Shown here one piece after another: positions 6,142-63,855 of a stretch of 64,000 nucleotides of DNA. Position 1 is the first letter of the stretch. The number at the start of each line of letters is the position of its first letter. The notes under the pieces were generated by a model. That model saw nothing but the letters and a program-made list of their open reading frames with translations, did no database searches and had not been told where the DNA came from. The position numbers and the translations under genes were made by a program. The stretch is from positions 128,001-192,000 of IMG/VR virus record IMGVR_UViG_3300010163_000002; one strand, given 5' to 3'. Source of the DNA: a virus (Duplodnaviria; Caudoviricetes).

Positions 6142-6690
6142 TTAGTTGTAAATAGGATTTTTCTCACGTATCACCTTATCAAATTTGGTATCTTTATCAG
6201 ATTTACCTTTAAGTATCCATTGAGTATACATGTCTCCAATTGTTTCACATCTTACGTGATAACCTATATCAGGATTAAATCCCATAGATAATACTCTAAC
6301 TTTCACTTTATCGTCGTTATTTACAAGTGTAAATACATCTCCGATTTTTATATTTTCAAATTTTCCAGTGTCAATTTTATGATCTTTTATAAATTGAGAA
6401 ATATTTTCTGGAGTTATTTCTCCAAAGTCTTTTACTTCAAATGATAAATTATTAAGATTCATACTTCCTCCTTTTAAAAATATTGGAGATAAGCCAACCA
6501 TAGAGTAGCAAGCTGGCCTTACAGTAATACGTTCTGCTGATTTATCCCATGATAAATATGGCATATAATGTGGAGCCCATGTATCCTCTGAAAGCCGCTT
6601 ATCAAATTTTTCTATTTTGCTTTTTAATGATACGCATTGCTTAAACTTATGATTCCATCCCTTTATCTTACGGTTTTTCTTTTTTCTCAT
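6142..6690 (-). CDS. hypothetical protein with internal RBS and ATG at 6462; C-terminal part homologous to a DGR target subdomain
   Basis: KDFGEITPENISQFIKDHKIDTGKFENIKIGDVFTLV; AGGAGG precedes both ATG 6690 and ATG 6462. Confidence 0.65.
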   Translation of the reverse strand: MRKKKNRKIKGWNHKFKQCVSLKSKIEKFDKRLSEDTWAPHYMPYLSWDKSAERITVRPACYSMVGLSPIFLKGGSMNLNNLSFEVKDFGEITPENISQFIKDHKIDTGKFENIKIGDVFTLVNNDDKVKVRVLSMGFNPDIGYHVRCETIGDMYTQWILKGKSDKDTKFDKVIREKNPIYN

Positions 6691-6828
6691 TATTTGCCTC
6701 CTTTGTTTAATATTTTAAAAAGTCCACATAAAGGTATTACTTTATGTCTGGCTATAAATATATTATACATTTCAAATATACTTTTTTACCTGTATAGGTT
6801 CTAATAAAACGTAACAATGTTAGACTCA

Positions 6829-6840
6829 AACATAATGATA
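6829..6840 (+). promoter_or_regulatory. late-type promoter motif AACA-N6-TA
   Basis: AACATAATGATA upstream of the RBS of 6869; one of about 20 copies. Confidence 0.7.
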
Positions 6841-6868
6841 ATAAAATGTTAAAGGAGGTAGCATTGTT

Positions 6869-8095
6869 ATGGCGATTAATAAGGCCACTTTAGCCAAAGA
6901 GATCGATGGCGTTATAGAGTATATATACCCTAAAACTACTGCTGATCTTGTAGAGTATGATGCGTCTTATACTGTTGAAGAAAAAATTAAACAGTTAGAG
7001 AAAAACATCACTGGCGTCAATGACAGGGTTAGTAATCTGACCACTGGAATTGGAGACGGTAGTATTACATCTGTACTCGATGCTGAGCTTTTGGATATTA
7101 GAATTCCTAATGCCGGTGTAGTCGGAACAGAAGTTAAATATGCATCTGCTGGCGATGCTGTCAGAGGTCAAGTTGGTAAACTTTCTGATGAGATAGGCCA
7201 GAATAGAAGTAATCTTTCTAACGTGAAAGGCAAAGTTGATACTCTTGAGAAAATTGTTTCCTCAATTCAGGGAACCGCTGGAAATTCTAATGCAGAAGTA
7301 GTTGGATTGAGGGTTCCAAATTCTAAAATCAGTGAATTAACATACCAGAATGCCGGAGAGGCTGTAAGAGCACAGTTAGGAATTTTATTTGATAAAATCA
7401 TAGCTACCGATGCAAAAATAAGCACAATGCAAAATGCTTTCCAAGGAGGAGAAGTAAGTTCTGCTGAAGGATTGGAATTGGTAGATATTCGTACTCCTAG
7501 CTATAATGTGGTTCCAGAGGGAACTACGTATAAGACAGCCGGCGAAGCAGTAAGAGCACAGATGGATGCTCTTAATGAAAAAATTGAAGAGGTAAAAGAT
7601 GGGACGTATTATGAACTCCTGTATGTAAATGGAGAGCCTCTCTATACATCAGACGGTGAACCTATACTTGTATCCATCTCTTATAATGAAGTCGGAACAT
7701 CTGATATTTCTGCACTTGAGAAACGTATGAGGCAGGAGCTCAAGGATACGTTGGCTGCCCATACAAGAATTATGCAGCAGACTCTTAATGTAATTAATGA
7801 AGGAATGGAAACAATGCAAAGAAATATCGATATGATATATACCGGAAAATACTGTGAACCGATTATGATCGATGGCGACGAGTGGTATACTTCTGATAAG
7901 CAGCAAATTGTTACTTATACATCAGTTGGAGATTTAGCTCAGGAAGCTATTGACAGAACAGCTCAGTTATTAAGAGGAGAAATCTATCAAGCTAAAGTAT
8001 CTTGTGCAAGAGCTTTAAAAGATTGGGTTATGGATCAGAACATGTTGTTTCTTGTTAATACAGAACCTATAATCGAAGAAGTTACAGCATCTTGA
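6869..8095 (+). CDS. tail-fibre-associated structural protein with three ELxDIR...YxxAGxAVRxQ repeats
   Basis: N-terminal YPKTTAD motif; three internal repeats; late promoter; directly upstream of the DGR target. Confidence 0.6.
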   Translation: MAINKATLAKEIDGVIEYIYPKTTADLVEYDASYTVEEKIKQLEKNITGVNDRVSNLTTGIGDGSITSVLDAELLDIRIPNAGVVGTEVKYASAGDAVRGQVGKLSDEIGQNRSNLSNVKGKVDTLEKIVSSIQGTAGNSNAEVVGLRVPNSKISELTYQNAGEAVRAQLGILFDKIIATDAKISTMQNAFQGGEVSSAEGLELVDIRTPSYNVVPEGTTYKTAGEAVRAQMDALNEKIEEVKDGTYYELLYVNGEPLYTSDGEPILVSISYNEVGTSDISALEKRMRQELKDTLAAHTRIMQQTLNVINEGMETMQRNIDMIYTGKYCEPIMIDGDEWYTSDKQQIVTYTSVGDLAQEAIDRTAQLLRGEIYQAKVSCARALKDWVMDQNMLFLVNTEPIIEEVTAS

Positions 8096-8162
8096 TATAT
8101 GTTATGGATTAAAACCAGAAATGGTTTTAATATATAAATTTTTAATAGGAGGTAAACCTACA

Positions 8163-9041
8163 ATGGGCAAAACAATTGCTAATTTAATTCAGGTAAATGA
8201 ATTGACAGCTAATGATGTATTTGTAGTAGGTACGGCCGCCGGCGATCGTAAGGTTCCTTACAATGTGCTGGTGCAGAATACTTCACACAATGCAATCTTT
8301 AGAGGCAAAAATCTTGGAACTGTAACAGCAGCCAACATTGACGCTTTCATTACTCAGCATGGTATTGCTACCGGAGTGTTTAATGATATCTATGTTGGTG
8401 ATTACTTCACTGCATCATATGCCGGAGCAAATACGGTATTCCGTATTGCTGGTATCAACTTCTATAAGAATACTGGTGATACGCAGTTGACTGCTAATCA
8501 TGTAGTTATCGTTCCAGATGGTAACCTTACAACTGCTGCGATGAATTCCACTAATACTACTGGAAAGAGTGCTAATGAAGCTAATACTTCTGAGAAGAGC
8601 GGATTCCTTGGTAGTGATATGTGGAATATTGTACTTCCGGATGTTAATGAGAAGCTTGCTGCTATCTTTGGCGGCCATCTGCTTACTCACAGAGAAATCC
8701 TTTCTAATAGCATGGATGAGAATGCTATTCCGTCTGGAAATCCATCTTGGAAGGGTGCTAGTAACGGATGGGAATGGGTAGATTGTAAGGCAGTTCTTAT
8801 GTCTGAAGTTGAAGTATATGGAGCTCCTGTATGCGGATCTTCGCTGTATGATGTAGGAATTGCAAACTGCATTCTTCCGCTGTTCGTGCTTGAAAAGCGT
8901 TATCTTACAAACAGAAGCTGGTTTTGGCTCAGAGGCGTAGCAAGTTCCGCGAATTTCTGCTATTGCACCAGCTATGGCGTTTCGGTCTGCAATAACGCGT
9001 CTAATGTCCTCGGCGTGCGGCCCCGCTTCCTTTTAGGTTGA
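8163..9041 (+). CDS. DGR target protein, putative receptor-binding tip with C-terminal CLec-like (DUF6273-type) variable domain
   Basis: Start at ATG 8163 (AGGAGG RBS); LMSEVEVYG...WFWLR...GVRPRF motifs; contains the VR. Confidence 0.9.
   Translation: MGKTIANLIQVNELTANDVFVVGTAAGDRKVPYNVLVQNTSHNAIFRGKNLGTVTAANIDAFITQHGIATGVFNDIYVGDYFTASYAGANTVFRIAGINFYKNTGDTQLTANHVVIVPDGNLTTAAMNSTNTTGKSANEANTSEKSGFLGSDMWNIVLPDVNEKLAAIFGGHLLTHREILSNSMDENAIPSGNPSWKGASNGWEWVDCKAVLMSEVEVYGAPVCGSSLYDVGIANCILPLFVLEKRYLTNRSWFWLRGVASSANFCYCTSYGVSVCNNASNVLGVRPRFLLG
8943..9031 (+). repeat. DGR variable repeat (VR)
   Basis: 89-nt ungapped match to 9984-10072; 15 mismatches, all at TR adenines. Confidence 0.97.
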
Positions 9042-9101
9042 TCCATAGCCCTAAAGCCGCCCGCTGTGTCGGTGCGGCATGGGCTATGAAAGATCAACCT
9101 A
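9034..9101 (+). promoter_or_regulatory. post-VR compound hairpin/cruciform (DGR target-recognition element)
   Basis: Nested inverted repeats TAGGTTGATC/GATCAACCTA, CATAGCCC/GGGCTATG, GCCGC/GCGGC, CCG/CGG. Confidence 0.75.
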
Positions 9102-9280
9102 CAACGATAGCATATAAAATGTAAAAATATACCATATAAAACACTCTAATAATATATGCTATGAGATATATTCTGGTCTTCTTATATAGCATGGCATGTA
9201 TTATCGTTATCCACATCCTTTTTGATTACGGGCGAGGTAAAACTCGCCTGTAATAATAAATATTATAAGAGGTTGAAACT

Positions 9281-9985
9281 ATGTCTGTTCCTGTTTATAG
9301 AAGAAATGAATCTAAATTGGAGTTTTACGAAAATTTCTTTAAGCTTAGAAGAGAAGTTTTACTTCTGTTAGCTAGGGATTTCGGAATTAAAGCTAGAACG
9401 TATGACGTAAATCTTGTGTCTGACATTTATGGCTTAAATAATCATGATAGAAATGAACTAATGGATATAGGGCAAAGAAATAATATCACCGGGTTTAATG
9501 TTGATAAGATCCCTATGTGGTTAATCGAGAATTGGCGGTATGAGATAATGAACATTTTAAATAATATTGGGATCGCCATTAACTGTGCTAATGCTATTTA
9601 CATAGTTAATCTTCCCGAATATTATGATAGACGGAATTTTCTTAATCATGCTATAGGATATTGCATGGCTCTTCAGGATAAGCTGAATGAAATCATAGTT
9701 TGCTTAAAAGATGTCAAATTAGGTGCGTATGAAAACGTATATAAGTTGATAGTTAGCGAAATAAGATTGTTAAAAGCTTTAAGGAGAAGTGACAATAAAC
9801 TATATAAAAAGTATGAGAATACTTTTCCGTACTACAATGGTTCGTTTTATTACAATGCTCCGCCTGTCCCGCCAACGTATATGTATGACGTTGAGAATGG
9901 CTCGGTAAATCGAGTCATGCTGGACATGTGCAAAATAGTTGATAAGAAAACAACCCCGTTTAAATCTCTGGGCATAGCTGCATAA
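9281..9985 (+). CDS. avd: DGR accessory variability determinant (Avd-like helical protein) with C-terminal extension
   Basis: MSVP..RR.ESKLEF N-terminus, ANAIY...YYDRR...AIG.C and EI.LLK..R.SD; lies between target and TR. Confidence 0.85.
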   Translation: MSVPVYRRNESKLEFYENFFKLRREVLLLLARDFGIKARTYDVNLVSDIYGLNNHDRNELMDIGQRNNITGFNVDKIPMWLIENWRYEIMNILNNIGIAINCANAIYIVNLPEYYDRRNFLNHAIGYCMALQDKLNEIIVCLKDVKLGAYENVYKLIVSEIRLLKALRRSDNKLYKKYENTFPYYNGSFYYNAPPVPPTYMYDVENGSVNRVMLDMCKIVDKKTTPFKSLGIAA

Positions 9986-10072
9986 TTCCACGAATTTCTG
10001 CAATTGCAACAACAATGGCAATTCGAACTACAATAACGCGTCTAATGTCAACGGCGTGCGGCCCCGATTACT
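9984..10072 (+). ncRNA. DGR template repeat (TR), part of the avd-TR-spacer RNA
   Basis: 12 AAY codons in the VR frame; differs from VR only at adenines. Confidence 0.95.
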
Positions 10073-10209
10073 GCCGGTATAACCAGAGGGTTATATTGGA
10101 GAGTAAGGAGCTTATGCCCATCCTCTCGTTCATACGAACGTTTGGTGAATTATTACTCGGAACCCGGATACGTCCGATGGTTTAATTTTTGTTTTGGTTG
10201 GTGCTATAG

Positions 10210-11400
10210 ATGTATGAAGCAATCTGTTTAATTGATAATTTATATGACGGATTTAGAGATGTTAGGTCTAAAAGCGGATGGAAACCTGAAACTCAACGGT
10301 ATTCTATGTATATGATGCCTAATCTTATTGAATTGAGAGATTCATTAGTTAATGGTACGTATAGACCTACTCCTCCAAATGGCTTTATTCAAAATGAGAG
10401 AGGAAAACCTAGATGGATAGAGTCAAGGTGCGTTAACGATAGAATCGTTAATAAAGTGGTGCATGATCATGAGATCATGCCAGCCATATTTCCAAAACTT
10501 ATATATGATAATGCCGCGTCTATAGAAAACAGAGGAACAGATTTCTTCAGGCGTAGATTGTTGTACCATCTTTCTAGTTTTGCTGCAGAACATGGAACAG
10601 ACGGTTATATTCTATTAATAGATTTTAAGAAATTCTTTGATAATATCAGACATGATGATCTAATACTGATGTTCAGACAGGTGATTTCTGATCCAAGATC
10701 GATGCGCCTTATTGAGATGATGATTAGATCTAATAGAGTTGATGTTTCATACATGAGTGATGAAGAGTATGCCAATTGCATGAATGTACCGTTCAATAAC
10801 CTTGAGTATCGTCAGAAAATTGTTTCTGGCGAATATAAAGCAACTGGCGAACGGTTTATGAATAAGTACATGGGGATTGGCAGCCAGATAAGTCAGGATG
10901 CTGGTATTTATTATCCTCATGATATAGATAATTATTGCAAGATAGTGAGGGGCGTTAAGGGTTATGGAAGATATATGGATGATTCTTATGCCATTCATCA
11001 TTCTAAAGAATTCTTATGGGATTTATTGATGCATATAAAAGAAATATGTATTACCCTTGGAATATTTTTGAATGAACAAAAGACTCAGATTGTAAATCTC
11101 AAACATGAATTTACAATATTACATACAAGATATAAGCTACATGAAAATGGAGATGTTTCAATAATCGCTGATTCTGATTCATTCAGCAGAGAACGCCGTA
11201 AGCTTAATAAGCAAGCTGATATGTTGAATGAAGGTTATGAAAGAATATCATATGATATTATTCGTAATCAATATAACTCATGGAGAGGAAATATTGTTAG
11301 AACAGCTAATGGTAGAAATATAGAACCATTACAAAGGATGGATAATCATTTTAATGAATTATTCATCGAACCATTCGCTAATGGCCAAATAATTATATAG
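10210..11400 (+). CDS. DGR reverse transcriptase
   Basis: ERGKPR, DRIV, IDFKKFFDNI, IGSQISQ (DGR-type SQ), RYMDD; no maturase or endonuclease domain. Confidence 0.96.
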   Translation: MYEAICLIDNLYDGFRDVRSKSGWKPETQRYSMYMMPNLIELRDSLVNGTYRPTPPNGFIQNERGKPRWIESRCVNDRIVNKVVHDHEIMPAIFPKLIYDNAASIENRGTDFFRRRLLYHLSSFAAEHGTDGYILLIDFKKFFDNIRHDDLILMFRQVISDPRSMRLIEMMIRSNRVDVSYMSDEEYANCMNVPFNNLEYRQKIVSGEYKATGERFMNKYMGIGSQISQDAGIYYPHDIDNYCKIVRGVKGYGRYMDDSYAIHHSKEFLWDLLMHIKEICITLGIFLNEQKTQIVNLKHEFTILHTRYKLHENGDVSIIADSDSFSRERRKLNKQADMLNEGYERISYDIIRNQYNSWRGNIVRTANGRNIEPLQRMDNHFNELFIEPFANGQIII

Positions 11401-11413
11401 GAGGTATATTAAA

Positions 11414-11665
11414 ATGGCTAGAACTTCTGCTGATATCCAGCGCGAAATCGATGTATTGCTTAACAGGTTGTCTGCTAACTCTTCAGATATTGGTGATTGG
11501 AAGGTCACTAAGATTTATGAAGCAAGACTTCTGAATAATCCCGATCCTTATGATACTGCTGCTCTTATTGCTGAGCGGCAGGCTGTACGTGATCAGATTA
11601 ATACTCTGCAGGAAGAACTGAAGACTGTTCAGTCGGCAGAATCTCATAATATCCAGTATGAGTAA
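11414..11665 (+). CDS. small tail-fibre chaperone-like protein
   Basis: L...DWKVTK..E....PY...L.AERQAVRDQINTL pattern typical of genes that follow tail-fibre genes. Confidence 0.55.
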   Translation: MARTSADIQREIDVLLNRLSANSSDIGDWKVTKIYEARLLNNPDPYDTAALIAERQAVRDQINTLQEELKTVQSAESHNIQYE

Positions 11666-11702
11666 TTAATAATTTACAGTATTTTGCCATAATATAAAAT
11701 AC

Positions 11703-11728
11703 ACCCGTAGGGAGAAATCCCTACGGGT
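11703..11728. terminator. bidirectional terminator hairpin
   Basis: ACCCGTAGGGA-GAAA-TCCCTACGGGT between convergent genes. Confidence 0.8.
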
Positions 11729-11735
11729 TTAATAT

Positions 11736-12332
11736 TTATCTGTTATAACCAAGCTTTCTCAAATGTTTGCTTACTGTGGAAGCGCATCTATCGCATTCTT
11801 CCGCAATTTTAGCATATGTATAACCTTTATTAAATAATTTAATAAATTTATTCACTTCTTCATTTGTTACTCTATTAGAAGTTCTCTTTAGAGTTTCACT
11901 GTTTTTCATACGATATTTAATTGTGTTTTCCGATATATTCAGCTCTTCAGCAATGGTTTTTATATAGCAACCGTCTTTAACCATACTATTTAATTTTTTA
12001 ATCTGTTTATCTGTTAATTTGTTTTTGGAGTTAATCTTTATTTTAGCTGGAGATTTTAATCTTGCACGCACACAACTACGGCTTTTTCCTAAAGCATTAG
12101 CAATTTGTGACAATGATAACCCTGCACTTCTCATTGCTAACATTTCTTCTCGTTCCGATTCAGTTGTTATATTATTATAGGTAGTTATTGCGTTATATAC
12201 TTCAATTTGAGATAATTTAGTCTTTTTGGCGATTTCATCAATATAATAACCAGAATTACGATACATAACGCAAATCCTTTTATTATACGATTCTATAGAT
12301 TCTCCCTTTTTTCTTCTTGGTTTTCCTAACAT
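11736..12332 (-). CDS. multi-HTH DNA-binding protein
   Basis: Four HTH-like repeats (e.g. GLSLSQIANALGKSRSCVR, GYTYAKIAEECDRCASTVSKHL). Confidence 0.8.
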   Translation of the reverse strand: MLGKPRRKKGESIESYNKRICVMYRNSGYYIDEIAKKTKLSQIEVYNAITTYNNITTESEREEMLAMRSAGLSLSQIANALGKSRSCVRARLKSPAKIKINSKNKLTDKQIKKLNSMVKDGCYIKTIAEELNISENTIKYRMKNSETLKRTSNRVTNEEVNKFIKLFNKGYTYAKIAEECDRCASTVSKHLRKLGYNR

Positions 12333-12416
12333 AGTTAAATTTACCTCCTTAGAAAACTTAGTATTATTTAGATGTAAATATAACCACGGCGGGGCAGTTC
12401 CCGCCGTGATAATACT

Positions 12417-13640
12417 TTATTTAAGAGAAAGCACTTCTTCAGGATCGATTTCATTTAATGCTAATGTGCTATCATGGAATGCTTTCATAGCTTTATTCTT
12501 TACAGACGACATCATAACCATAGATACGAGGCCTACATTCTCTATACCAGCTCTTCTGAATAATGTACCAGCACACGTTTCACATATGCATCCATCTTGT
12601 GTTCTAGCGCATAGAGAAGAATATCTCATTTTAACAGTTTTACCAATAAGGGAATCCATATTATCAGATGTAATCTCTATAGGATTCCCCGATGAATTAA
12701 TATAGTATGAATACATCCAGCTTTTGATATTTTTATTTGTTAATGTGACATCAATTGTTCTCTTTGTACCGCAATCTGTATGCGGTATAATTTTAATATG
12801 CTGAGTAGCGCGAGTAAATAATTTTTCGTTATATCCGCCATATCTTGTCTTTTGTGACCTTGAATATGGTCCGCCAACTGCAGCATCATTTGTTTTAGCA
12901 AAATCTTTAGGATCAAGACCAGAAATATATGAACTTCCGACATAATCATATGAACCATCTGTCTTTTTAATTGATCCCTTAAGAAGATACATATTCTTAA
13001 AATTATTTCCCCACTTAGAACGTGCTCCTGAATTATACATATCTGCTGATTCAGAATCTTTTAATTCTTCTTTAGCAAAATCAATTAACTCATTCTCTAT
13101 CTTTTTAATCGCTTCTAGGTCTCCATCCTCTAACTCTTTAGCGTATTTTGCTTCAAGTTCTTTCTTTTTCTTCTCTGCTTTTGTTGTAATAAGAAGAATA
13201 TCCATATCATGAGATGGGCATAATGCAGACGCACAACTCATTAATATTTGGGTTTGCATTATAAAGTCTTTTACTTGATCTATAGTTACTTTTTCTTCAA
13301 GAAGAGCATACGATATCTTTTCGTTTATTTTATCGTATGTTTTATCTGTTACTGTTTCATTCACATACCCAAGTATATCAGCCATTGGTTCAATAAATGA
13401 TTTATTGAATAACCATAATCCAACTGTAGTAGTAAAAGAGTTTTTATTTTTCTTTTTATTGCCGTAATATCCTTTAGGAATTACTATGGTATCATATGTA
13501 TTGAACATTGGGCCGTCCCCATAATCTGCGAACCACTCCATTATTTTAGATTTCTCACATGCCTCATCATGAGTTAATGATAAGATCTCTTCAACATCTT
13601 TTGGATTATCTATAATATTGCTCACTCGCTTATTAGCCAT
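12417..13640 (-). CDS. phage multisubunit RNA polymerase beta-prime C-terminal subunit (probably virion RNAP)
   Basis: Bridge helix GGYNEK...QHIKII..DCGT, Zn site RYSSLC...CICETCAG, trigger loop AMKAFH; late motif at 13666-13677. Confidence 0.85.
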   Translation of the reverse strand: MANKRVSNIIDNPKDVEEILSLTHDEACEKSKIMEWFADYGDGPMFNTYDTIVIPKGYYGNKKKNKNSFTTTVGLWLFNKSFIEPMADILGYVNETVTDKTYDKINEKISYALLEEKVTIDQVKDFIMQTQILMSCASALCPSHDMDILLITTKAEKKKKELEAKYAKELEDGDLEAIKKIENELIDFAKEELKDSESADMYNSGARSKWGNNFKNMYLLKGSIKKTDGSYDYVGSSYISGLDPKDFAKTNDAAVGGPYSRSQKTRYGGYNEKLFTRATQHIKIIPHTDCGTKRTIDVTLTNKNIKSWMYSYYINSSGNPIEITSDNMDSLIGKTVKMRYSSLCARTQDGCICETCAGTLFRRAGIENVGLVSMVMMSSVKNKAMKAFHDSTLALNEIDPEEVLSLK

Positions 13641-13848
13641 AGTGCACCTCCTATAACTCTCATTTTAATGAAATGTCAATAGCTCTAAATCATATAAATA
13701 AGTCATATAATAACTTTATATTGCTATATATTGTATTATTGTGCTTTATATAAGCTATAAATTATAATAAATTAGTTCATGATTGGGTCTTTATTGTTGG
13801 TAATACATTTTAGTAACAATCACTAGATAGAGGAGGATTTAACTAATC

Positions 13849-14084: not shown

Positions 14085-16004
14085 ATGTATAATATTCCGA
14101 TAAAACTTAACAGAGATTTTGAAAGTTCAATTTGTCACGCTAAAAGTAAGTATGGGGAGGACTTTGAAATTCTTAATGGGTTTCATGAATCTCAGGTAAA
14201 CTTCTCGGACTTTATTGATGGTTTCATTGATAAGAATGTAGCAGATGTTACTATCGATGCAAATGCAAATGCTTCCCATAAAGATATCAGATCTTTATTA
14301 TCAGAGAAAGGTAAATCGCACGATAAGCTTTTTGCTTTCAGTAAAATCTTTTATGAAATGAAAAAGAAATGGGGATTATGGACGGCGAGAACATGGCTCG
14401 ATACAGAGTATTCTGGAGGATTTTATTTGCATGATGCGCCATCAACATCTTACATGCCATATTGTTATGCTTATGATCTGTGCAGATTGGCTGAAGAAGG
14501 TTTATTCTTCTTAAAAAATTACAATGCCGAACCTCCAAAACATTTGACTACATTTTTGGATGATGTAATTGAATATATAAGTTACATGAGTAACAGATCT
14601 TCCGGCGCTGTTGGTATTCCAAATGTTCTTGTATGGACTTTCTATTTTTGGAAGCATGATATTAAAACTGGCCATGTTATTAAAGACCCGGATTATTATG
14701 TAAGACAAATTTTCCAGAAATTGATTTATAGATTAAATCAGCCGTTTATGAGAATTGATCAATCTGCATTTGTTAACATGTCAATTTTTGATAGAGAATA
14801 CGCAGAAGCTCTATTTGGCGGGCTGGAGTATCCTGATGGTACATTCTTCATTGATTATATAGATGAGTTTATGGAACACCAGAAAATATTCATGGATGTT
14901 GTATCTGAAATCCGTAGTGTCAATATGTTTACTTTTCCGATTTTAACATATTCTCTTCTTTATAAGAATGGGAAGTTTGTTGATGAAGAATTTGCTCGTT
15001 GGTGCTCTGATCATAATACTTTATGGAATGATTCTAATTTCTTTATTAGTGGCGATGTAACCACATTGAGTAATTGCTGCAGATTGTTAAGCGATACCAG
15101 CAAGTTAAGTGGGTTCATTAATTCTATTGGGGGTACAGCGCTTTCAATTGGTTCTATCAAGGTAAATACAATTAATCTTGTTAGAATAGCATATGAATCT
15201 AATTGCGATGAGGAAGAATATCTCAGGATATTGAGAGATAGAACGGAATTATGTTGTAAGACATTGGATACAGTAAGACATATTATCAAACGTAATATTG
15301 AAAAAGGGCTGCTTCCAAACTATCAGGATGGCGCTATTGAAATAGATAAACAATATTGTACTATCGGAATTCTTGGTATGTATGAAGTAATTGAAAAATT
15401 CGGTTACATTAAAAGAGATGAATTTGGGTACGTATATTATACAAATAAGGGAATGGAATTTGCTTGTAAAATCTTTGATGTATTAAATGATGTTAAAGAT
15501 AATTTTACCAAAGAATATTCATTCAACATCGAAAGTGTTCCTGCTGAACGCGCTGCAGTAATTCTTTGTCAGAAAGACAATCTTATATATGGAAATAATG
15601 ACAAATTCATTTATTCCAATCAGTGGATTCCTCTCAGTGAAAAATGTACTATTCAGGAAAAGCTTAGAACAGCAGCGGTTCTTGATAATAAGTGTTCTGG
15701 TGGTTCCATTGCGCATATTAATCTTGAATCTAACTTCCCGAATAAAGATTCTGCATGGAAGGCATTAAATAATATCGCTCAGTCTGGAGTAATTTATTTT
15801 GCTTTTAATACAAGAATCAATGAATGTAAAAATCATCATGGATTTGTTGGAACTGATCATTGCCCTGAATGCGGCGAAGTAGTATATGATACATACCAAA
15901 GAATTGTAGGATATCTTGTACCGACAAGAGCATATTCTAAGGATAGATTTAAAGAATTCACAACCAGAAAATGGTATGAGTATGCAGAAATGTTAGGAGA
16001 ATAA
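14085..16004 (+). CDS. nrdD: anaerobic (class III) ribonucleotide reductase
   Basis: Y.HD...PYC, SNCCRL finger loop, C-terminal Zn site and QRIVGYL glycyl-radical motif. Confidence 0.95.
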   Translation: MYNIPIKLNRDFESSICHAKSKYGEDFEILNGFHESQVNFSDFIDGFIDKNVADVTIDANANASHKDIRSLLSEKGKSHDKLFAFSKIFYEMKKKWGLWTARTWLDTEYSGGFYLHDAPSTSYMPYCYAYDLCRLAEEGLFFLKNYNAEPPKHLTTFLDDVIEYISYMSNRSSGAVGIPNVLVWTFYFWKHDIKTGHVIKDPDYYVRQIFQKLIYRLNQPFMRIDQSAFVNMSIFDREYAEALFGGLEYPDGTFFIDYIDEFMEHQKIFMDVVSEIRSVNMFTFPILTYSLLYKNGKFVDEEFARWCSDHNTLWNDSNFFISGDVTTLSNCCRLLSDTSKLSGFINSIGGTALSIGSIKVNTINLVRIAYESNCDEEEYLRILRDRTELCCKTLDTVRHIIKRNIEKGLLPNYQDGAIEIDKQYCTIGILGMYEVIEKFGYIKRDEFGYVYYTNKGMEFACKIFDVLNDVKDNFTKEYSFNIESVPAERAAVILCQKDNLIYGNNDKFIYSNQWIPLSEKCTIQEKLRTAAVLDNKCSGGSIAHINLESNFPNKDSAWKALNNIAQSGVIYFAFNTRINECKNHHGFVGTDHCPECGEVVYDTYQRIVGYLVPTRAYSKDRFKEFTTRKWYEYAEMLGE

Positions 16005-16824: not shown

Positions 16825-18345
16825 ATGGACAACGATAAGAAGGTTGATGGGCCAAATATAGTTTTGCAATATCCATTCAACGACAAATACGATTATGAGA
16901 CAGAGTTAAATAGAATAGATCTTGATAAGCGTAGAGTAGAGAATATTAAAACTGGTAAAGGTTTTATTATTTCCTCGCCAAGAAGTATCAAGAAAGATAT
17001 TAAAAATCAGGAGGGTATATTTTCAAGTAGATACGGATCAAATTCCATTTCTGATGTAGATTCTTTCAATGGCAGATACCGTTGTAAATGCGGTAGAAAG
17101 AGAGGGTCTATTAATCACGGCGATTTATGTTTAGTATGTGGCGAAAGAGTTAGGTTAGTTGATGATGATGTATCAATTAAAGGATATTTAGTTCTTAAAG
17201 ATCCGTATTGGATTATACATCCAAATATTTATTGTGCATTGGAGGCATTCATTGGAGCCACAAGATTAAACAGAATTATAGAACCAGAAGTCAATATAGA
17301 CTGTAATGGCGCTGTTATTAATACTGCTTCTACAAAAAAGAATGAACCATTTAAGGGTATTGGATTGATAGAATTTCATGATAGATTTGATGAAATTATG
17401 AATTTCTATTTATCAAAATATCCTGGAAAGAAGAATTACTATGATAGTATTATGAGTGCGAGAGATATAGTATTTACTCATACTATTAGCGTATATTCAT
17501 CTTTACTGAGACCGTCTCGTCTTGATAATGGTTCATTAAGATACGAGGCATGCAATGAGCAATTTAATATGCTGGCTTCATTGGTATACAGGGTAAATAA
17601 TGATAAACTTCATATGAATCGTAAGATTAAAGAAAAGTATGAATTGCTCTATGATATCCAGTGCCAGCTTAATTCTGTTTATATAGAATTAAAGAATATT
17701 TTAAGTAAAAAGAAAGGCGATATTAGATCATCAATTGGAGGTCGATTTTGCTTTAGTGAGCGTAGCGTGATTAGGCAGGATGTTAATTTAATGCCAGATC
17801 AAATTCGTCTTCCATTTCATGGATTATGCGAATTATTACAACAGGTTATTATTAATATCCTTGTAAAAACATACAACTTTAGCTATGCTAAAGCATATAA
17901 GAAATGGTATAAGGCTCAGGTTACTGGGCATGATCAAGTTGTTTATGATATTATAAATGGTTTGATACATGATTCACCTGGAGGATTGCCATTTATTATT
18001 AATAGAAATCCAACTATCTCGTACGGTGGCGTACTTATGGTAAGATGTATTGGTATTAATATGGATTTTACTATGAGTATTTCATTATTAATATTGAAAC
18101 TGTTAGCAGCAGATTTCGATGGAGATACACTTAATATTCTCTATTTGCTTAATCAGGAATTTATCAAAATAGCAGAAGAGGTTATTAATCCAAGACAGAT
18201 GTTTATATCTAGGAATGATGGTATGTGCAATTCAGACCTTCTTCATTCTAGAGATGTAATCATAAACGCAAATGCTCTTAAGAATTTGTATGTATATTCC
18301 AATGGAGAATTAGAACAAATTAGAGCCATGCAAAATATAAACTAA
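16825..18345 (+). CDS. phage multisubunit RNA polymerase beta-prime N-terminal/catalytic subunit (probably non-virion RNAP)
   Basis: Zn finger RCKCG...CLVCG, GRFCFSERSVI, NRNPTI and catalytic ADFDGD. Confidence 0.92.
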   Translation: MDNDKKVDGPNIVLQYPFNDKYDYETELNRIDLDKRRVENIKTGKGFIISSPRSIKKDIKNQEGIFSSRYGSNSISDVDSFNGRYRCKCGRKRGSINHGDLCLVCGERVRLVDDDVSIKGYLVLKDPYWIIHPNIYCALEAFIGATRLNRIIEPEVNIDCNGAVINTASTKKNEPFKGIGLIEFHDRFDEIMNFYLSKYPGKKNYYDSIMSARDIVFTHTISVYSSLLRPSRLDNGSLRYEACNEQFNMLASLVYRVNNDKLHMNRKIKEKYELLYDIQCQLNSVYIELKNILSKKKGDIRSSIGGRFCFSERSVIRQDVNLMPDQIRLPFHGLCELLQQVIINILVKTYNFSYAKAYKKWYKAQVTGHDQVVYDIINGLIHDSPGGLPFIINRNPTISYGGVLMVRCIGINMDFTMSISLLILKLLAADFDGDTLNILYLLNQEFIKIAEEVINPRQMFISRNDGMCNSDLLHSRDVIINANALKNLYVYSNGELEQIRAMQNIN

Positions 18346-62556: not shown

Positions 62557-63855
62557 ATGGCATATGGAATTGTAAATGGTCCTGCAGGAGCATCTAGATC
62601 ATCTGGTGTTTCTGGATCTGGAATAAGTATTGTGCCATTTCAAACTGGCGGATTAACATATAACAGCAAAGAACAATCCCCTGTATGGAGTAATTATGAT
62701 ACCGAAAAGCTTACACTTGGTGGAGTGACTAAGAGTACTAATGCCGGTACATATATTGCTACATTCACTCCTAAGGAAGGTTATACATGGATGGACGGAA
62801 CCACTGGAGCCAAAGAGGCTCCGTGGACCATCGCTAAAGCACCAGGAAATTTGACAGCAGGAAGAACAGATATGATTTTTGATGTTTTTAATTTATCAGA
62901 AACTATAAATATTATATGTGATGGGGATGGAGCCATAAGTGTTAAGGTTATAAATGAAGATATTGCTACAGTTGAACTATTTGGTACAGAATTGACAATA
63001 ACTGCTATAAAGAAGGGTTATACAGGTATTATTTTAAGATCGATGGAAGACGATAATCATACTGTTTCTGAATTTAAAGTAATACACGTGCATTGCGATA
63101 TTCCAAGTAGCGTATTAGAAGAAAATGATATTAAATATATTGTAGATGCGGCAAAATCAGGAACGGCCAAAAATTTCTGGTCTGTGGGCGATACTATTCC
63201 TATACAGTTAGAGTATGGCTACGATGTTGGTTTAGGCGCACATCCGATTATATATGCGTATATAATTGGTTTTAATCATAATCCAGATATTGAAGGAAAT
63301 AATACAATACATTTTCAATTAGGCAAAACTGAAGATGGTACTGATATAGCCATTACAACTACACACTATGGTAGTGGTAGCAGTTCTAGCTCTGGAACTT
63401 TCCATATGATTTTGCAAGGTAGCAATGCAGGGGGGTGGGAAGGAACTAGCTTGAGAAAAAATGATTTAAATAAAACATTTTTTAGCGCATTTCCAACCGA
63501 ATGGCAAAATGCTATGAAAAATTGTCCTAAATATACCAATAATATAGGACAAAAATCTTCATCCGTTTCAGTTACCGAAGATAAATTATGGCTATTATCT
63601 GAATTTGAAGTTTTTGGAGAAATAACTAGATCAACTGAACTAGAACAAAATTTCCAAAAACAATATTCATATTATGCTAATGGTAATAGTAAAATAAAAT
63701 ACAGAAGTAAATCATTAGATACTACTGCTATTTGGTGGTTACGTTCTCCTGCTTTTGCAAGTAGCGGTTTTTGCTGCGTTTTAAATGATGGTTTGCCTGG
63801 CGTAGCACAACAGTACATGGCATATGGATTATCCGCGTGTTTTGCAGTAGGTTAA
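62557..63855 (+). CDS. tail-tip protein with Ig-like domains and C-terminal DUF6273/CLec-like domain
   Basis: WSVGD, IIGFNHN, N.GGW..., DKLWLLSEFEVFG, WWLRSP...FC.V...G. Confidence 0.8.
   Translation: MAYGIVNGPAGASRSSGVSGSGISIVPFQTGGLTYNSKEQSPVWSNYDTEKLTLGGVTKSTNAGTYIATFTPKEGYTWMDGTTGAKEAPWTIAKAPGNLTAGRTDMIFDVFNLSETINIICDGDGAISVKVINEDIATVELFGTELTITAIKKGYTGIILRSMEDDNHTVSEFKVIHVHCDIPSSVLEENDIKYIVDAAKSGTAKNFWSVGDTIPIQLEYGYDVGLGAHPIIYAYIIGFNHNPDIEGNNTIHFQLGKTEDGTDIAITTTHYGSGSSSSSGTFHMILQGSNAGGWEGTSLRKNDLNKTFFSAFPTEWQNAMKNCPKYTNNIGQKSSSVSVTEDKLWLLSEFEVFGEITRSTELEQNFQKQYSYYANGNSKIKYRSKSLDTTAIWWLRSPAFASSGFCCVLNDGLPGVAQQYMAYGLSACFAVG

Follow-up and report, generated by a model that had tools for sequence, protein, structure and literature searches.

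Our understanding of diversity-generating retroelements (DGRs) is most complete for small temperate phages and for bacteria. In BPP-1, a temperate phage of 42 kb, the element is transcribed by the host RNA polymerase (RNAP) and is arranged as mtd-avd-TR-brt, that is, as a target gene, an accessory gene, a template repeat (TR) and the gene of a reverse transcriptase (RT). The DGRs of gut Clostridia phages, such as Roseburia phage Shimadzu and Faecalibacterium phages, are found on genomes of 39-62 kb, and in Shimadzu the annotated order is tail fibre, Avd, RT. The crAss-like phages, which are podoviruses of about 100 kb, carry a DGR that acts on a receptor-binding C-lectin protein and possess their own RNA polymerase and no established lysogeny (PMC11054128, PMC12386605). 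In surveys of cultured jumbo phages, no FGS-type C-lectin domains and no DGR-type C-lectin targets were found among 224 jumbo phages (PMC7824862), and the only RT recorded, that of the Staphylococcus jumbo phage MarsHill, is retron-like and not of the DGR class according to its authors (bioRxiv 10.1101/2020.12.14.422802). Here we describe positions 8163-11400 of a 64,000-nucleotide stretch of viral DNA (hereafter the window), which comprises bases 128,001-192,000 of the single 248,905-bp IMG/VR record IMGVR_UViG_3300010163_000002 (Duplodnaviria, Caudoviricetes; 115-bp terminal overlap; 32.7% GC). We consider it very probable that these positions hold a genuine, resident DGR in a jumbo phage. 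The architecture of the element is canonical and the device itself is well known, but its setting, a jumbo phage related to AR9, has not been described previously, and it corrects the picture given by the cultured phages. It also raises the questions of whether mutagenic retrohoming can take place in a lytic cycle on a replicating pool of genomes, and whether the DGR RNA can be provided by an RNAP that is not the host's.

The gene order of the locus is that of BPP-1: target, accessory protein, TR and RT, all on the plus strand, as are the other features of this locus and, unless noted, the other genes of the window described below. The variable repeat (VR, 8943-9031) forms the final 33 codons of the target open reading frame (ORF), and the TR (9984-10072) begins inside the avd stop codon. 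Throughout their 89 nt the two repeats keep the same offset, 1041 nt, and their alignment needs no gap. They differ at 15 positions, and at every one of these the TR base is an adenine, which is replaced in the VR by G (six), T (five) or C (four); none of the 61 TR positions that are not adenine has changed. Since the TR contains 28 adenines, the probability that 15 random mismatches would all fall on adenine is about 1e-9. When read in the VR frame, the TR contains 12 AAY codons plus ACG and TAC, and all but two of its 28 adenines (26) occupy codon position 1 or 2. A scan of the whole genome that tolerated changes at adenines recovered only this VR and the TR itself, so that the TR has a single VR copy genome-wide. 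As in BPP-1, the VR closes the 3' end of a gene for a C-type-lectin-fold, putatively receptor-binding protein and shows adenine-specific differences at AAY codons, although at 89 nt its length differs from that of the BPP-1 repeat.

The 3' ends of the repeats also conform to the known pattern. The mutagenised stretch of the VR reaches to about position 9011 and is followed by a GC-rich block of 14 nt (9012-9025) that is common to TR and VR; such a block closes both repeats in BPP-1 as well. The two remaining differences, at 9026 (A in the TR, C in the VR) and 9029, lie beyond it. In all six cassettes inspected (that of the window and its relatives) the TR has A directly 3' of the GC-rich block where the VR has another base, and because this contrast recurs, the differences at 9026 and 9029 probably represent the initiation of mutagenic homing sites IMH and IMH* rather than mutagenesis. 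An earlier reading of this DNA, made from the letters alone and referred to here as the sequence-only reading, had proposed this as a possibility. It had also described the gapless 89-nt alignment, the 15 mismatches confined to TR adenines and the 12 AAY codons; we obtained the same coordinates, exactly the same 15 positions and the same count. Immediately after the VR, and spanning the target stop codon (9039-9041), is a long hairpin (9034-9101) with a predicted DNA folding energy of -24 kcal/mol and a z-score of -6.8; none of 200 shuffled sequences was as stable. GC-rich hairpins are also present 3' of the target stop in the related cassettes L002, L004 and L005, and a hairpin follows the VR in BPP-1. 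The hairpin in the window is a candidate for the DGR target-recognition hairpin, for a terminator, or for both. At the level of sequence the GC-rich element, the IMH/IMH* pair and the downstream hairpin are all present.

The target gene (8163-9041) would encode a protein of 292 residues. Its reading frame is open from 8121, but translation probably starts at an ATG at position 8163, ten bases downstream of AGGAGG, giving a length that compares well with the 293 residues of homologues. An AlphaFold2 model of the protein (pLDDT 87) predicts a C-type-lectin-like fold from about residue 70 onward, with the VR as its C-terminal strands. Structural comparison with VIA-align matched this model to an IgA-peptidase domain of Thomasclavelia (9qa6, Z 12.8), to the C-terminal domain of Legionella Lcl (8q4e, Z 7.2) and, at lower scores, to the DGR variable proteins TvpA (2y3c, Z 5.8) and Mtd of BPP-1 (1yu0, Z 4.5, a weak match); dozens of other C-type-lectin-like domains, including animal ones, matched it too. 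The protein falls below Pfam thresholds, and its alignment profile gave only chance matches to PDB sequences. It belongs to a family of 436 homologues, some of which contain PF19789 (DUF6273) or a tail-collar domain, and it may be regarded as a distant relative of DUF6273. The ending of the target type, ...WLR...G(V/I)RP..L, is shared with the DGRs of gut Clostridia phages. Directly 5' of the target is a gene (6869-8095) for a tail-fibre-like coiled-coil protein of 408 residues with a weak PHROG tail match; its N-terminal motif is found again in other fibre-like genes of the genome, and further fibre genes are present in the window. Fold and position together suggest that the target is the receptor-binding tip of a fibre.

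The accessory gene (9281-9985) would encode a protein of 234 residues, and its stop codon overlaps the first base of the TR. It was not matched by any Pfam, PHROG or NCBIfam model, and among 5.8 billion proteins just three sequence homologues of similar length were found. AlphaFold2 (pLDDT 72) models it as a bundle of four helices, the first and second of which are separated by two additional short helices; the C-terminal tail is disordered. When the model was compared with the PDB using VIA-align, four of the six top matches were Avd or members of the Avd family. The scores were Z 13.3 for 2gsc, 12.7 for 2rld, 12.9 for the Avd chain in the DGR ribonucleoprotein from BPP-1 (8ub7_B) and 12.5 for bAvd itself (4dwl), on which 107 of 109 residues superpose with an rmsd of 2.2. 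A profile built from nine homologues was then aligned using hhalign with the annotated Avd of Shimadzu (probability 98.5%, E 2.4e-15). Foldseek returned nothing for the model at E < 0.001, the alignment profile gave only chance matches to PDB sequences, and a predicted complex of the RT with the Avd core scored 0.24 against a mark of 0.32. We accept the protein as a divergent, enlarged Avd because of the Avd-family fold matches and the profile match to Shimadzu, and with this identification the predicted four-helix bundle occupies the expected place between target and TR. Compared with its BPP-1 counterpart it has double the length, owing an insertion and a tail to none of that protein's parts, and shows no detectable sequence match to bAvd; the Shimadzu protein, too, is shorter, at 136 residues.

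The RT gene (10210-11400) encodes 396 residues with matches to PF00078 (5.5e-14) and phrog_1423 (3e-58). It contains the sequences GIGSQISQ and YMDD, both conserved across seven aligned relatives; (I/L/V)GxxxSQ in domain 4 is characteristic of DGR RTs (PMC3521204). The nearest relatives of the enzyme are all located within cassettes of the form target-Avd-TR-RT. The closest deposited RTs are those of gut Clostridia phages (34% identity, E 3e-60). Brt of BPP-1 is matched only at E 0.004, and the RTs of crAss-like phages, some of which have GxxxSP in place of GxxxSQ, match only marginally (E about 1e-4). Among the matches listed, 60 GenBank phage records contain a relative of the RT and none of these exceeds 137 kb.

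Between TR and RT lies a spacer of 137 nt (10073-10209), presumed to be the Sp part of the DGR RNA, and this too has been counted among the likenesses to BPP-1. It includes a hairpin with a UACG tetraloop (10165-10176). In a pattern scan, 13 of 24 related cassettes had such a hairpin, with a stem of 4-5 bp, preceding the RT start by 20-82 nt; its carriers include L002, L003, L004, L005 (where the loop is UAGG), L010, L012, L014, L021, L022, L030 and L040 in addition to the window. The stems covary (CGGA/UCCG, CAGA/UCUG, CUGA/UCAG, CUAU/AUAG, UGGC/GCCA, CGGU/ACCG, UUCU/AGAA and UUAU/AUAA), and the hairpin is probably a conserved spacer element of the DGR RNA in this clade of RTs. RNAalifold, applied to TR-RT spacers aligned with MAFFT, detected almost nothing, and an Rfam scan of 6500-12500 gave no match.

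The surroundings of the cassette identify the replicon as a jumbo phage of the AR9/PBS1 type, as the sequence-only reading had supposed, although its kinship with AR9 and PBS1 themselves is distant. At 249 kb the genome resembles in size those of AR9, PBS1 and the Staphylococcus jumbo phages MarsHill and S6 (about 250 kb), which also give the best matches to its split RNAP genes (32-37% identity), and unlike BPP-1 the phage possesses RNAPs of its own. Two pieces of multisubunit RNAP are encoded in the window, both within 7 kb of the DGR. The first (12417-13640, minus strand; phrog_2962, 8.5e-73) is 37% identical by tblastn to AR9, PBS1 and Internexus, with Staphylococcus jumbo phages and phiR1-37 as the next-closest matches; in AR9 the corresponding gene is annotated as coding for a subunit of the virion RNAP. 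The second (16825-18345; phrog_2987, 1.9e-57) is of the beta type. With 6800-13700 as the query, blastn found nothing similar among GenBank phages.

It must be asked whether the cassette could be an assembly chimera, acquired in silico from a co-occurring small DGR phage. The cassette type, defined by a DUF6273-like target, a long Avd and this RT clade, is one that many small phages of gut-type metagenomes have in common. Small phages in the same sample types are rich in members of the RT and target families. The GC content of the cassette (0.32-0.43) is also slightly above the genome mean of 0.327. Nevertheless, the GC profile across the cassette shows no sharp step, and both flanks consist of genes of the phage lineage with promoter motifs of the lineage type. 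Moreover, independent assemblies place the same cassette beside jumbo-phage genes. In L021, from another metagenome, a cassette of 50-52% identity adjoins homologues of other genes of the window genome, with homologues of the 6869-8095 product at the equivalent position. G001 is a second DGR-bearing jumbo phage, of 229 kb, with the same cassette and an RNAP piece 31% identical to that of the window. More generally, homologues of the RT at 54-59% identity occur on contigs of 273,872, 229,362 and 176,139 bp, and homologues of the target at 54-65% on contigs of 179-269 kb, so that at least four other contigs, 176-274 kb in length, carry relatives above 50% identity. On the basis of these relatives, the DGR is a stable component of an uncultured jumbo-phage lineage, and we regard a chimeric origin as highly improbable. 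Misassembly from another phage had been named in advance as one of the findings that would overturn the sequence-only reading, and it is not borne out; the description of a complete DGR within a tail-fibre module, with all structural parts present, holds, as does that of an intact RT with YMDD. For avd, the claim of an intact ORF is correct, and the identity of its product had to be established from fold and profile comparison, no family model having matched.

The target gene of G001 spans the ends of its contig, and for this reason the record is a circularly closed genome cut inside the target gene. At least two or three fibre paralogues of the target with the same C-lectin C-terminus are nearby in G001 (L003 714-1868, 1901-3160 and 9143-10804), one of them with an N-rich, TR-like tip (...NNNAN...). 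In an unrooted tree of the RTs from 23 related cassettes, the window RT groups with that of L021 (support 100/98) and the RT of G001 is placed elsewhere. The backbone of this tree is not resolved, and jumbo phages may have acquired the DGR once or repeatedly.

We also asked what the relatives say about the activity of the element. The order target, long Avd, TR and RT is found in other IMG/VR and metagenome contigs, and in five related cassettes the numbers of VR/TR mismatches at A and at other TR bases were 12/0, 16/1, 17/1, 17/1 and 15/7. In an alignment of 16 target homologues of 49-65% identity, mean entropy was 2.49 bits at residues from A-bearing TR codons; it was 0.63 bits at the remaining VR residues and 0.91 bits elsewhere in the protein (Mann-Whitney p 8e-6). 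This hypervariability shows the action of the predicted DGRs across the lineage on an evolutionary scale, and is not proof of present activity. The wording "apparently active", used in the sequence-only reading, would thus refer to the intactness of the element, the absence of mismatches at non-adenine bases and the hypervariable residues of the relatives.

How the element might be transcribed is suggested by motifs of the AR9 late-promoter type, for which the consensus is AACA-N6-T(A/G) (PMC5312081). In the genome as a whole there are 165 instances of DACA-N6-TAA, of which 70 are in the 7% of the DNA that is non-coding; 11.7 would be expected there, so that the motif is sixfold enriched. The modal position is 25-32 nt upstream of starts on the same strand. 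At the motif level, therefore, AR9-type late promoters are present. An AACA-N6-TAA motif at 6829-6841 lies 28 nt 5' of the fibre gene that begins at 6869 and probably drives the target gene as well. A second motif, AACA-CTCTAA-TAA (9140-9152), is 129 nt 5' of avd and is a candidate for the start of an avd-TR-RT transcript. A TACA-N6-TAA sequence is likewise found ahead of avd in G001 (L003 3224). The placing of the two motifs hints at late expression of these genes; if the 9140 motif is real, the phage's own RNAP would produce the DGR RNA at a late stage of infection.

These elements can be assembled into a proposed mechanism. The late promoters and the binding of RNA by RT and Avd are deduced from sequence motifs, and the cDNA, homing and fibre-tip steps by analogy with BPP-1. 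Late in infection, the non-virion RNAP of the phage would initiate at AACA-N6-TA motifs, with the motif at 6829 giving rise to RNA for the fibre and target genes and that at 9140 to RNA covering avd, the TR, the spacer and the RT gene. The TR-spacer RNA would be bound by the RT and by the Avd-like bundle. In copying the TR into cDNA, the RT would insert wrong bases opposite those 26 adenines that occupy codon position 1 or 2. The 12 AAY codons together with ACG and TAC could then specify about 1e15 peptides, without a stop codon. The cDNA would replace the VR; guidance would come from the 14-nt GC-rich block common to both repeats, from the two IMH-type differences (9026 and 9029) and from the hairpin at 9034-9101. 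Since the VR residues make up the last part of the predicted C-type-lectin fold, progeny genomes would encode fibre tips with new binding specificity. Taken as one combined statement, that the DGR is complete, resident, functional and wired as proposed, we judge this to be likely, though less certain than the presence of the DGR itself. In practical terms the DGR marks the adaptable receptor-binding fibre of this phage group.

Several observations pull in the other direction. The spacing of 129 nt between the 9140 motif and avd is the longest in the genome's set, the chance of finding one such motif in the 239-nt spacer is about 0.1, and no exact late-promoter motif is present at avd in L021, the closest relative. 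The identification of Avd is derived from fold and profile-profile comparison only, and a Z of about 13 for a helical bundle is not in itself discriminating. With phmmer, the RT matches PDB sequences weakly and with similar strength for group II intron RTs and for Brt. A search of IMG/VR for the exact TR pattern found no other contig. Finally, because L021 has seven mismatches at non-adenine bases, recent activity may not be general across members of the lineage.

The last of these points bears on an alternative in which the DGR is intact but now dormant, the differences between VR and TR recording past homing and the fibre tip having become fixed. The seven mismatches in L021 suggest drift without homing in at least one member of the lineage, 13 of the 28 TR adenines in the window are unchanged in the VR, and published crAss-like lineages include fragmentary DGRs alongside complete ones (PMC11054128). 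On the other hand, all of the ORFs are intact, the catalytic and SQ motifs of the RT are conserved, and the absence of change at all 61 non-adenine positions implies that homing was recent relative to neutral drift. In addition, relatives whose proteins have diverged by about 50% in sequence still carry the cassette. On balance we think dormancy unlikely, and we continue to favor a functional DGR.

If the DGR is functional, it is of interest to know in what state of the phage retrohoming would occur. The sequence-only reading had called for a check of the full genome for lysogeny genes, and the outcome was mixed. Just past the end of the window, at genome positions 192368-193387 (L001 1012-2031), there is a gene for a tyrosine recombinase (PF00589, E 2.6e-37) of XerC/D-like architecture; an S24 repressor, ParB and a serine recombinase were not found in the genome. 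The best phage matches of the recombinase are integrases of temperate Clostridia phages (33-38%). An orthologue of 32% identity is present in the distantly related phage G001 (L055 994-2025), 7 kb from its DGR and beside fibre-like genes, and AR9 has neither a tyrosine recombinase nor an RT. Candidate roles for the enzyme are integration, dimer resolution or fibre switching, and no convincing shufflon-type inverted repeats surround it.

One reading of these facts is that the phage is temperate, or persists in a carrier state by means of the recombinase, and that retrohoming takes place mainly in that state, as in the classical temperate DGR phages, and not within one lytic cycle. The recombinase and its affinities speak for this, and DGRs are commonest in lysogenic phages, while 121 gut jumbo phages with integrases have been reported (PMC8241571). 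Opposed to it are the lack of the S24-type repressor, ParB and serine recombinase just mentioned and the candidate late promoters ahead of the DGR genes. The recombinase, moreover, has fibre-like genes around it and may serve some other purpose, and when 185,579 species-representative genomes of prokaryotes were scanned by pattern, no relative of the RNAP piece, and hence no integrated copy, was found. We consider a temperate or carrier state possible but not probable.

A different account would be that small phages were the source from which a jumbo lineage related to AR9 captured its DGR, which then came under the control of the lineage's own late promoters. Retrohoming would then operate on the replicating genome pool within a single lytic infection, with transcription by the multisubunit RNAP of the phage and independently of host RNAP and lysogeny, and the tyrosine recombinase would be a second, unrelated device for host range or genome maintenance. 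In so specific a form we put this forward tentatively, as a possibility that probably does not hold in every part. On these data the phage may be either lytic or temperate.

Several other genes of the window may be mentioned. A second protein of the C-lectin type is encoded at 62557-63855 in the window (PF19789 DUF6273, E 3.9e-15; phrog_37900), with a WWLRSP...-type C-terminus that resembles those of DGR targets. The genome contains no TR that would correspond to it, and on that account it is either a non-diversified paralogue or a former target. Right after the RT is a small conserved ORF of 83 residues (11414-11665; phrog_17180), a homologue of which is found in G001 a few kb from the DGR (L003 8816-9124, minus strand). 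An NrdD-type anaerobic ribonucleotide reductase (14085-16004; phrog_25611, 3.3e-165) points to an anaerobic host and, taken with the phage's relatives, makes a Firmicute the likely one. Finally, between the DGR and the first RNAP piece is a gene on the minus strand (11736-12332) for a protein of 198 residues with three or four tandem helix-turn-helix modules of the HTH_38, HTH_23 and Sigma70_r4 types, and a motif of the late-promoter type (12364-12376) lies ahead of it.

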